Shown here: in pieces, positions 14,156-39,770 of the stretch | How positions within the stretch are numbered: the stretch's first letter is position 1 | Layout: each line of letters opens with the position of its first letter | Sequence record: PZ379182.1 | Strand: one strand, 5' to 3' | DNA length: 46,134 nucleotides | Origin: a phage | Translations under genes and position numbers: made by a program | Notes under the pieces: model-generated | Database searches by the model: none | Told to the model about the DNA's origin: nothing | What the model saw: the letters and a program-made list of their open reading frames with translations, nothing else

Positions 14156-14309
14156 TCAAAGCGTAACTAGGCGTATACGATTTCCCGCTGATGCATATGG
14201 TATACATAGAGTTACATCGGTTACGCGTAACCAACAGCACGAATAGCTAAAACTAATCCGCAAAACCATGTATAGTTGGTCACACAAAAAAACGAGAGAG
14301 GATTTCAAA

Positions 14310-36716: not shown

Positions 36717-36905
36717 TTACTTTCGCTCACGAACGTAAGCTACTAGGAATTTGTGGTAATCCGGGTCGGCACCAGACATTACCTTAACTTTCGCTACTGC
36801 TTCCTCTGAGGACTTAGCAGTAACCGACGCGATAAATTCTTGAGTGCAACTTTTGCAACTACGACCCATTAATCGGATTGAAAGCTTAACATCCCAGAGC
36901 TGCAT
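36717..36905 (-). CDS. hypothetical protein (possibly the C-terminal part of the 36886..37098 gene)
   Basis: 62-aa ORF; one fewer A in the AAAAAA run would fuse both ORFs into about 131 aa. Confidence 0.4.
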   Translation of the reverse strand: MQLWDVKLSIRLMGRSCKSCTQEFIASVTAKSSEEAVAKVKVMSGADPDYHKFLVAYVRERK

Positions 36906-37098
36906 TTTTTATCTTCCCGCTCTGATTGCTATAGTTTTGAGTTTCTCTTTCAAGCTCGAGATAACATTTAATATCCGCGCTAACTGAAACCCCGCCAATC
37001 ACACCCTTTAAGCATTTATGTTCACGGTCAAGTGTTGCGTTGAATTTTTGGGAAGTGCCGCTTTCAATATCTTTTACGATGATTGTTACTTTTTTCAT
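36886..37098 (-). CDS. hypothetical protein
   Basis: 70-aa ORF; overlaps the next ORF by 20 nt across an A6 run. Confidence 0.4.
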   Translation of the reverse strand: MKKVTIIVKDIESGTSQKFNATLDREHKCLKGVIGGVSVSADIKCYLELERETQNYSNQSGKIKNAALGC

Positions 37099-37129
37099 TT
37101 AATCCCCCAGGATTATTGGTTTCTTAATT

Positions 37130-37205
37130 TGGTGTTCCGCACTGGACTCGAACCAGTAACTAAGACTTAGGAGGTCTTTGCGTTATCCTGTTACGCCAGC
37201 AGAAC
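37130..37205 (-). tRNA. tRNA-Arg (anticodon CCU, reads AGG)
   Basis: 76 nt folded by eye: acceptor GTTCTGC/GCGGAAC (one G-U), D-arm GCGT/ACGC, anticodon stem AAGAC/GTCTT with loop CUCCUAA, T-arm ACTGG-TTCGAGT-CCAGT, encoded CCA. Confidence 0.8.
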
Positions 37206-37393
37206 AAATCCTTGAGTAGCGATTGCGCTATTGAAGGATTGCTGGTTACGCTTCCAGCGTCGAGTTTCTCGACCGATTTCGCCATATACGCTGCTTAGTG
37301 AGCTATGGACTTTGTGTTGCGCTCCGTGCGCCGTTGCCACTTGGTGGCCTCGTCTGTCTACAGTTGTTAATGTACCAGTCAGGGTTAGATGTG

Positions 37394-37591
37394 TCAACTT
37401 ACTCTTTCGAATTTCCCATAATTCTGGTCATACGGGTAGTCAATGCTCACCAATTCGCCATTATCGCTGTAGCAGAATACGTGGCCAGTCTTCGATACCT
37501 TTTCGACCTGGTAATCGCATCCATCCATGAAGTCATCCGATGCCGCCTTTGTGCACTTGATAGCATCGCCTTTCTTAATAATTTTATTCAT
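37394..37591 (-). CDS. hypothetical protein
   Basis: Track ORF 37394..37594; ATG preceded by GAGGAG. Confidence 0.5.
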   Translation of the reverse strand: MNKIIKKGDAIKCTKAASDDFMDGCDYQVEKVSKTGHVFCYSDNGELVSIDYPYDQNYGKFERVS

Positions 37592-38390
37592 CAAAACTCC
37601 TCAGTTATAAGCATCTTGCCACAATCTTTGCACTCGTAGAATGCACATGCTTTCACCAACTAATAGACTTGGTTTTGTTGACTCGTGGTACTTGCATCGT
37701 TTAGCGCTTTAATGTCAAAATCGTTAATGATTTGATGTGAACACGTAAACGTAGCGATGCTTGTGATTGATTTCTTTATTATTCATAAAGGCTATTCCCA
37801 TTCTGATCATGGCCTACGCGACATTTTCTATAACCAGCAATCCACACAAATTTGTCTCGAGCAATTAGTGTCGAAACCGGCCCCCACACTTGAGTAATCA
37901 GCGCTGCCACTACCTTATCATCTTTCTTCTTTGCGCCCAAGTTTGCCGTATTCGTCATTCAGCTTATCAGCCTGTCGCTTGACTGCGTTAAAGTATGCGT
38001 CGTCTAATCCGAACATTATTCATCATCCTCCTCGCATGCTATGAGACTATCGCAATTATCACGGCATCGCAAATGCCTTTGGTGCTTTAGCTATTCGTGG
38101 CTGTAAATCAAGTCAGCAATGACTTAACAAATTCGATCTGGAGTAACCATCTCATTCGCTTCGTATGGCTCTATGCAATCTCTTCGTTGTATGAATGAGT
38201 TGAACGTTATCATGGCAAATCCGATGCGCTGTCATGCAATTACGCAATTCGTGCGTATGCCATTTCTTATCTTCACGCTCTTTCCATAGATTTCAGTTAG
38301 CTCGTAAGTACATTCATGGCATCTTCGCCAGTCTTAGCCTCATCCATGCATCCGTGCAGGCCCACTGGCTTGGTGTTTCGTAGTTATCCA

Positions 38391-38516
38391 TTAGTAAACA
38401 AGAGCCTCGTGGTTTGCTATGTAAAGCTCCTCATCGTGCTTGTTTTTAATGAAGTACCCATTGCCATCTTCGCTAGGCTCTGCATAGAATACGTCGCCAT
38501 GCTTTAAGCGCGCCAT
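38391..38516 (-). CDS. hypothetical small protein (41 aa)
   Basis: Read by eye: GGTGAGGA RBS then MARLKHGDVFYAEPSEDGNGYFIKNKHDEELYIANHEALVY; below track cut-off. Confidence 0.3.
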   Translation of the reverse strand: MARLKHGDVFYAEPSEDGNGYFIKNKHDEELYIANHEALVY

Positions 38517-38571
38517 ATAATCATCCTCACCAATGATATACGATCTTAATCATGCAATCACCTCACTTAAA

Positions 38572-38706
38572 TTATAGTTCGTTAGAATCGCTTTTAGCGT
38601 CATCTACGGCTGCTGAAATCATGTAAATAATCATGAAGCCCAATGACCAGAGTAACCATGGCAATGCTTCAACCAGAAATTCACCCATCATTAACCCAGT
38701 ATGCAT
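38572..38706 (-). CDS. small membrane protein (about 44 aa)
   Basis: Track ORF 38572..38760; internal ATG at about 38706 follows GAGGAT; one hydrophobic helix LVEALPWLLWSLGFMIIYMI. Confidence 0.4.
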   Translation of the reverse strand: MHTGLMMGEFLVEALPWLLWSLGFMIIYMISAAVDDAKSDSNEL

Positions 38707-38716
38707 TTCTCTATCC

Positions 38717-39139
38717 TCAGATTTTGTTAATTTGCTCAAACTTCTCAAACCAGAAAACAACTGGATCCTCCACTATGGAGATGAGGCCGAACCGCTCTGC
38801 CGTGCGAAAATTCATGCTGCTCTTACGCCCGCGAGCTACTTGAAGAGACACCTGTTCCCTGAACATTTCAAGGGAATAGCAAGTTTTCATGAGGTTGCAT
38901 GGAGCACATGCAGGGTAAAGGTTTTCCATTCGATCAGCTTGTGGTCGATTAAACTCACCTGTCGCCTTCAGCTTGAAAGTTCCTTTCTCCGCTGCCTTCA
39001 TGCATACCTCAGATTTACGTAGCACCGGTTCAACATGGTCAGCATGCCAGCCTTTCTCAGGTAGTTCACACCCACAATAAGCGCAGCGACCACCGAACTT
39101 GCCCTTCAACTCTTCCCTTTGAGATTTGCTTAATTTCAT
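38717..39139 (-). CDS. HNH endonuclease (zinc-ribbon type)
   Basis: 140 aa; CAYCGC...H..H...CAPCN motif arrangement. Confidence 0.8.
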   Translation of the reverse strand: MKLSKSQREELKGKFGGRCAYCGCELPEKGWHADHVEPVLRKSEVCMKAAEKGTFKLKATGEFNRPQADRMENLYPACAPCNLMKTCYSLEMFREQVSLQVARGRKSSMNFRTAERFGLISIVEDPVVFWFEKFEQINKI

Positions 39140-39329: not shown

Positions 39330-39544
39330 TCTTCGACCACCTTGTACTCGCCTTCTTCAAAACTAACCATCTGTCCTATTGATACTAACTCAGTATCACG
39401 AATCGCTCGAGCTGATAAGCTACCACACCCGAACCGACCGGTTACTTCTAATACGTCACCAACTCTTAAACCCGCATGTGCTTCAAGCTGTCAGAACGCC
39501 TTACTTCTGGTATGTAGTTCACGTCGATGAATTTTAATTTTCAT
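39326..39544 (-). CDS. hypothetical protein with an in-frame TGA at codon 18
   Basis: MKIKIHRRELHTRSKAF-TGA-QLEAHAGLRVGDVLEVTGRFGCGSLSARAIRDTELVSIGQMVSFEEGEYKVVEE read in one frame; coordinates approximate. Confidence 0.3.
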
Positions 39545-39770
39545 ATCTATACTCCATCTCGTTGTCGATGTGGTAATTATGCCGGATTTCTCCGGCAATT
39601 GTTTATGCAATGTCATGCTATTCACCGAGTTTCATCACGAAGAACATAACACTCAACACCTCTTCAAGAACGTCCAGCTGAGATTTCGCATCATTCGTAA
39701 TACTCATAAGCTCGAATATGCTTAACGCTGTTGAATTTTCCTGTATAGCTCATGTCCTGAACGTAATAAA

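Follow-up and report, generated by a model that had tools for sequence, protein, structure and literature searches.

A conserved small-gene block in the genome of an Rtp-like Escherichia coli phage, with reading frames probably broken by insertion-type sequence errors

The 46,134-nt stretch of phage DNA analysed here in full (hereafter the window) carries on its minus strand, between 37591 and 38553, the conserved small-gene block of the Rtp-like phages (Braunvirinae), located upstream of the tRNA-Arg and the terminase genes. The block probably consists of ordinary conserved genes overlaid by insertion-type consensus or assembly errors, and the true phage is likely to have five intact genes. 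In the window all five are interrupted; in 18 related loci, some from isolates and others from independent metagenome contigs, whichever of the five genes are present occupy a single frame each, with no internal stop. The gene-poor look of the interval, on which a first-pass annotation had remarked, arises because window-specific extra bases shift every frame. All five frames are shifted by about 31 extra-base events (about 55 nt), along with a small number of private substitutions and a stop that arose by substitution, and the extra bases also stretch the spacer of a promoter-type cassette.

The small-gene block and its genomic setting

The window comprises the entire genome, in circularly permuted form, of an Rtp-like phage of E. 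coli (Drexlerviridae, Braunvirinae). Its closest matches are the Escherichia phages ES (OR466728) and AN_ECEAS (PP944860), both belonging to the Drexlerviridae, Braunvirinae, with an identity of about 91% over most of the genome. At the 46134/1 junction, a 128-aa gene of AN_ECEAS aligns at 237-1 and resumes at 46134-45988; since this gene spans both ends, the sequence represents a whole, circularly permuted genome opened within a gene. Every gene from about 34.4 to 41.4 kb is carried on the minus strand.

Small minus-strand proteins of the relatives, searched against the window with tblastn, accounted for the whole interval and did so in the same order as in the relatives. The broken block thus delimited (37591-38553) contains five genes and is slightly wider than the interval 37600-38390 that had originally been singled out. 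Within the latter, the minus strand has only very short ORFs, as had been noticed, none of them exceeding 59 aa. The 53-aa gene (phrog_38524; 38391-38553, minus strand, as are all members of the block) loses its frame after codon 6 and leaves a 41-aa remnant ORF (38391-38516). The Rtp12-like gene (phrog_1312, 46 aa in ES; 38263-38391) has stops in every frame; the products of its relatives carry Pfam DUF8272. The Rtp13-like gene (phrog_22596, 47 aa in Rtp, G8 and FP; 38118-38263) is diverged, with an in-frame TGA and indels. Next to it lies a promoter-type intergenic cassette (38017-38105), made up of a 21-nt repeat, a hairpin, a -10-like hexamer and an RBS, and then the 78-aa Rtp15/T1 gp59-like gene (phrog_303; 37779-38016), which is distributed over two frames (ORFs 37918-38016 and 37779-37958); rtp15 of phage Rtp is itself annotated as similar to T1 gp59. 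The last member (37591-37786) is a homologue of a 63-aa CxxC protein (ES WNO47652, FP_0012) for which no family was found, and it is matched by tblastn in two frames, with stops. None of the seven small proteins had a match in Pfam. From their position and size, the small proteins would be products of accessory genes, a class usually assigned to host take-over.

In the direction of transcription, the order runs from the 53-aa gene through the Rtp12-like and Rtp13-like genes to the 21-nt repeat with its -10-like hexamer and the Rtp15-like gene, and then continues through the 63-aa CxxC gene, a 65-aa gene and a conserved, putatively structured leader to the tRNA-Arg. The genes that flank the broken block are intact. 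On the lower side lies the 65-aa gene (phrog_4927; 37394-37594, minus strand, ATG start at 37591), the exact protein product of which occurs on eight metagenome contigs, and on the upper side lies a gene for a 44-aa hydrophobic small protein (38572-38706, minus strand), found as an exact protein on a Logan contig, followed by an intact 140-aa gene (38717-39139). Some of the product names in OR466728 and PP944860 appear unsupported, namely 'endolysin' for the 53-aa protein, 'u-spanin' for the 44-aa hydrophobic protein and 'DNA repair ATPase' for the 140-aa protein, in which an HNH-like Cys/His motif can be made out by eye. The interval had been described as lying next to the tRNA. The only tRNA gene, an intact tRNA-Arg with the anticodon CCT (37130-37205, minus strand; ARAGORN; Rfam RF00005, 58.9 bits), is indeed in the vicinity, but it is separated from the broken interval, first by a conserved non-coding element and then by the 65-aa gene (37394-37591).

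The assignment of the Rtp15-like gene is supported by its corrected 78-aa product, which matches phrog_303 with E=5e-23 and is 94-97% identical to the proteins of ES and TR1 and to protein P0019. In tblastn, the Rtp15-like proteins align in two different frames, with residues 1-31 at 38016-37924 and residues 26-78 at 37940-37782, which bears out the earlier remark that the ORF MFGLDDAYFNAVKRQADKLNDEYGKLGRKEER (37918-38016) continues in another frame. The Rtp13-like gene, the frame of which is not intact, occupies its syntenic place between the Rtp12-like and the Rtp15-like genes; it was detected by tblastn with a local E-value of 4e-5 and matches 62 phage records at about 50% identity, with database-wide E-values of 0.01-0.06. 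Its DNA aligns to the corresponding genes of Rtp, G8 and FP with z = 10.8-12.5, as against z = 1.2-4.8 for the repeat cassettes, and its 3' end leads straight into a 21-nt repeat, as it does in G8, FP and Rtp. A motif-like start and a leader-like stretch had made 38104-38267 a candidate for a second full repeat/promoter cassette; this was rejected on the far higher z of the Rtp13-like alignment and on the way in which the gene end meets the next repeat, as in these three phages. A direct DNA search of the phage collection with 38095-38275 returned no match.

The counterparts of the block are the rtp12-rtp15 block of phage Rtp and those of other Braunvirinae (ES, AN_ECEAS, G8, FP and TR1/TR2), which have in common with the window the proteins, their order and strand, the location between the early small genes and the tRNA-Arg/terminase region, and the repeat upstream of the Rtp15-like gene. 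The window differs from all of them in having a frameshift or a stop in each of the five genes, from the 53-aa to the 63-aa one. The block is mosaic among the relatives, with ES and AN_ECEAS being devoid of the Rtp13-like gene and Rtp and TR1 of the 63-aa gene; the gene complement of the window combines the Rtp13-like gene of Rtp, G8 and FP with the 63-aa and 53-aa genes of ES. In ES (1218-1462), AN_ECEAS and related contigs, about 244 bp of unannotated DNA lie between the 63-aa and the Rtp15-like genes and are absent from the window (37779-37787); these contigs, too, are without the Rtp13-like gene (38104-38267 in the window).

Nature and probable origin of the interruptions

The private events that break the block are all insertions, with no internal deletion among them. 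In base-level alignments to ES and AN_ECEAS, the window has 21 insertion events, amounting to 27 nt and falling between 37648 and 38536, and not one deletion. Aligned to G8, the Rtp13-like segment shows about ten events (28 nt), of which one adds 11 nt and about nine are shorter, and here, too, internal deletions are absent; this segment is strongly diverged (about 67% identity), so that the event count depends on the alignment and some of the gaps could be real. The in-frame TGA of the Rtp13-like gene is a substitution-derived stop and not the result of an insertion. Among the other members, the 63-aa CxxC gene has 4 private extra nt from three events, near 37648, 37692-37696 and 37729-37731, and a single additional base at about 37939 splits the Rtp15-like gene; the latter gene is uninterrupted in 17 relatives, and at the eighteenth locus (L016) it is cut by the contig end. 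Six private +1 insertions fall in the Rtp12-like gene (38293, 38296, 38305, 38314, 38348 and 38360) and one extra base in the 53-aa gene, at about 38536. The spacer 38017-38105 contains eleven insertion events (16 nt) and no deletions relative to the ES-type relatives. Deleting the private bases restores four full-length ORFs, of 63, 78, about 46 and 53 aa.

These insertions are found in the window only, when it is compared with 11 metagenome contigs derived from different samples and assemblers (L011-L016, L023-L026 and L033), which had been retrieved through exact matches to neighbouring proteins, and they are shared by none of the 13 close relatives formed by these contigs together with ES and AN_ECEAS. 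By eye, most of the inserted bases lie outside homopolymers, and no common motif was seen when a shared context, such as homopolymers or methylation-type motifs (e.g. GATC), was looked for. The insertion patch has a sharp boundary in the comparison with contig L014, which has 4 mismatches to the window in the 2100 nt up to 37600, whereas the following 168 nt contain 14 mismatches and 4 inserted nt. This independent metagenome contig (GCA_048607545.1) ends exactly at window position 37768.

Breaks of the same kind were observed elsewhere in the genome. The helicase, which is one ORF of 664 aa in TR2 and of 557 aa in AN_ECEAS, is broken by private +1 insertions into five frame pieces in the window (7159-5163). 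Insertions of this kind interrupt, in addition, a nuclease gene (5158-4740), two small genes (4458-4108) and the gene for the polynucleotide kinase (2322-1851); AN_ECEAS and TR2 have single-ORF orthologues of all of these. A further insertion-rich patch (39464-39770), with 11 insertion events, one deletion and few mismatches relative to contig L012, disrupts the homologues of a 70-aa and a 48-aa gene of AN_ECEAS. The structural genes between 8 and 36 kb are, every one, in a single frame. In the capsid region, which is truly diverged (73% identical), 28 insertion and 20 deletion events were counted and the ORFs are intact.

The codons beneath the interruptions show purifying selection. Comparison of the corrected Rtp15-like gene with its nearest allele (L023; protein P0019) revealed 24 synonymous and 2 non-synonymous codon differences, with 22 of the 26 changed bases at third positions, and the gene was under such selection throughout its divergence. 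The two non-synonymous changes, G64C and E69Q, fall on residues that are otherwise conserved and occur in no other sampled member of the cluster, and Gly64 is invariant in all the others. Part of the patch is a genuinely different allele, with a divergence over the Rtp15-like gene of about 15% that is mostly synonymous; the nearest alleles found (P0019 contigs and L033) share with it 81-85% of the DNA sequence in the Rtp15-like gene and the spacer, as against 97% of the protein sequence. Because part of the patch is a different allele, some of the gaps in the non-coding spacer 38017-38104, like some of the Rtp13-like events, could be real.

The first-pass annotation had offered four readings of the interval, namely a decaying accessory region, a set of tiny genes, a non-coding RNA locus and degraded tRNA remnants. 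The first corresponds to a recent and real pseudogenisation, in which the extra bases would be genuine mutations by which five accessory genes and their promoter had been lost, either from the phage or from a defective genome in the sample. It accords with the broken frames present in the sequence as given, with accessory small genes being the class most easily lost and with the mosaic nature of the block. However, some 31 insertions without a deletion do not form a natural mutation spectrum, whereas diverged parts of the genome show both kinds of event; the codon differences, at 24 against 2, retain strong purifying selection and not the relaxed selection expected of a pseudogene; none of the close relatives shares the insertions; and the same lesions are present in the helicase, nuclease and polynucleotide kinase, which a viable lytic phage should need. 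Decay is not favoured, because the lesions are all private insertions in codons under purifying selection and recur in the helicase, and pseudogenisation is regarded as unlikely. It is very unlikely that the extra bases are real in another sense, as insertion-only hypermutation patches that disable five accessory genes, the promoter and the helicase in a T1-like genome that is defective or helper-dependent or that has come from an insertion-generating process at mosaic junctions.

Of the four readings, the set of tiny genes comes closest, in that the interval does hold five conserved small genes; these are, however, not the short fragments visible as ORFs. Some of the fragments do keep a start and an RBS, such as 37918-38016 behind AGGAGG (38027-38032), and the fragment 38314-38391 also retains its start, as would be expected of genuine micro-genes (20-59 aa) expressed as they stand. 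Yet each fragment corresponds to one end, N- or C-terminal, of a longer conserved protein that continues in another frame, none of the 18 related loci encodes the truncated forms, and exact look-ups of two window-specific broken products found none, the 59-aa fragment being absent among about 15 billion proteins; micro-genes are highly improbable. An RNA locus, or degraded tRNA genes clustered with the tRNA-Arg, would suit an interval that is near a tRNA and without long ORFs. The relaxed-threshold searches for tRNAs and non-coding RNAs that had been proposed were run and produced no further example of either. ARAGORN found the tRNA-Arg(CCT) at 37130-37205 as the only tRNA of the window, and a scan of 36900-38800 with the 4227 models of Rfam 15 at E<=10 returned, by RF00005, the same tRNA and otherwise three chance-level hits (E 4-5) far below gathering scores. 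The folding energy of 37600-38390 is not below that of shuffled sequences on either strand (z = +0.53 and +0.05), so that no excess structure is seen, and protein-coding homology covers the whole interval. A single arginyl-tRNA is, moreover, typical of T1-like phages (PMC4070988), and both RNA readings, which these results do not support, are extremely improbable. That the frames are rejoined when the genes are expressed, through programmed ribosomal frameshifting or through transcriptional slippage, is a formal possibility for which nothing specific was found. It would take no fewer than 13 separate shifts, spread over five genes and mostly away from slippery or homopolymeric sites; the relatives encode the same proteins in one frame, and the likelihood of such rejoining is practically negligible.

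The lesions are thus most probably errors and not mutations. Error is preferred because the same type of lesion hits the helicase, the nuclease and the kinase, which a lytic phage should need, and because the insertion-only spectrum is unlike the divergence of the capsid region, with the promoter cassette stretched in the same manner. Residual insertion errors in assemblies arise from uncorrected long-read gap closure or from mixed-strain consensus. The lesions of the window resemble such errors in being insertion-only, mostly outside homopolymers and accompanied by a few odd substitutions, and in occurring in patches, in a single record and without regard to whether a gene is essential, although the attribution is inferential. 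Insertion-type consensus errors may have been left in assembly patches by uncorrected long reads or by a mixed-strain consensus at mosaic junctions, and an origin of either kind at such junctions is plausible; errors restricted to patches require a special technical history, at which we can only guess. Exact-pattern scans of IMG/VR and JGI metagenomes for the window, or for a twin with the identical allele, found none, the window was likewise absent from the phage and protein collections searched, and a search of IMG/VR for related loci gave three, all of them already-known isolates.

The comparison with relatives, which had also been proposed, was carried out and revealed intact conserved small proteins in this interval, which is the first part of what had been named as refuting evidence; the second part, intactness in the window after correction, is reached only conceptually, four of the ORFs being restored once the private bases are taken out. 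The outcome serves mainly as a quality flag: annotation of the interval as pseudogenes, micro-ORFs or an RNA locus should be avoided, and polishing of the record is called for at 37.6-38.6 kb, 39.46-39.77 kb and 1.8-7.2 kb. For about a dozen genes, automated gene calls, pangenome counts and pseudogene statistics derived from it would be in error.

The 21-nt repeat and its promoter-type context

The cassette motif, AATAGCAC[T/G]AATTGCTAA, has 14 occurrences in the window at <=3 mismatches, against 0.06 expected, and its 10-nt core has 11 occurrences against 0.5 expected, including those at 37861, 38090 and 38244. Copies of the 18-nt repeat lie at 1293, 2380, 3644, 4724, 7739, 8783, 12586, 14233, 14982, 34368, 40291, 42048, 43196 and 43976. 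The motif is the already published intergenic direct repeat of the T1 family, a 21-nt element with the consensus aaATAGCACnnnTTGnTAAAA that is present in 18 intergenic copies in phage TLS and also occurs in T1, Rtp and Rogue1, and that in TLS is oriented with transcription about 76 nt upstream of start codons (PMC11447400). The motif of the window has the same consensus and the same orientation relative to transcription, and start codons follow it at a distance of about 75 nt.

A -10-like hexamer follows the TTGnTA of the repeat at 21-23 nt in 12 of the 14 copies, at exactly 22 nt in nine of them, and in these twelve the start codon is mostly 74-77 nt from the repeat start (range 70-100 nt). 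Random positions satisfy the hexamer spacing in 5.9% of cases, which corresponds to P ~1.6e-13. This fixed spacing supports a promoter-type role for the repeat, in which its small palindrome, TAGCA-N5-TGCTA, would occupy a -35 or an activator position, and such support for the T1-family repeat is a by-product of the present analysis.

Three degenerate copies of the motif had been reported within the interval, of which one is genuine. On the minus strand, 38087-38105 reads TACAGcCACGAATAGCTAA, which is the ES copy, AACAGCACGAATAGCTAA, with one extra C; the same variant, AACAGCACGAATAGCTAA, is also present at 14233. The copy is intergenic, between the Rtp13-like and the Rtp15-like genes, is oriented in the sense of transcription and is followed by a hairpin (38063-38077), the -10-like hexamer GATAAT (38055-38060), the RBS AGGAGG (38027-38032) and the ATG at 38016. 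Its distances exceed those typical of the repeat (about 76 nt to the start codon and, in twelve of the 14 other copies of the window, 21-23 nt to the hexamer), with 27 nt from TTGnTA to the hexamer and 89 nt from the repeat to the ATG, as compared to 21 nt and about 74 nt in the ES orthologue; the excess is made up of window-private inserted bases. The other two are matches to the core only and lie in coding sequence, not between genes. The match at 37861 falls within the Rtp15-like CDS, where it encodes the conserved codons T-L-I-A-R, and that at 38244 falls in the sequence coding for the N-terminus of the Rtp13-like protein and arises from the 11-nt window-specific insertion relative to phage G8.

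A conserved hairpin element beside tRNA-Arg

The non-coding element that separates the 65-aa gene from the tRNA-Arg is a candidate structured RNA (37282-37397, minus strand), comprising a sigma70-like promoter, TTGACA-17-TACATT (37369-37397), and three hairpins (37336-37348, 37319-37331 and 37282-37308). The Rfam scan of 36900-38800 gave no family match to it. Since no intrinsic terminator was found downstream, the element is probably either a structured 5' leader co-transcribed with the tRNA-Arg or a small RNA.

Support for the structure comes from covariation. In an alignment of 18 distinct sequences, 93.8% of the cells pair and compensatory changes are seen in 10 of the 16 pairs; hairpin 1, for instance, occurs as GCCAC/GTGGC, CCATC/GATGG and CTAGC/GCTAG. 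None of 500 shuffles matched the observed values, and slid controls collapsed. The second by-product of the analysis is thus a covariation-backed structured RNA candidate in about 100 Drexlerviridae genomes that has never been annotated: the element is kept in 103 phage records of the family and annotated in none of them, and it persists in Rtp, the record of which annotates no tRNA at the locus.
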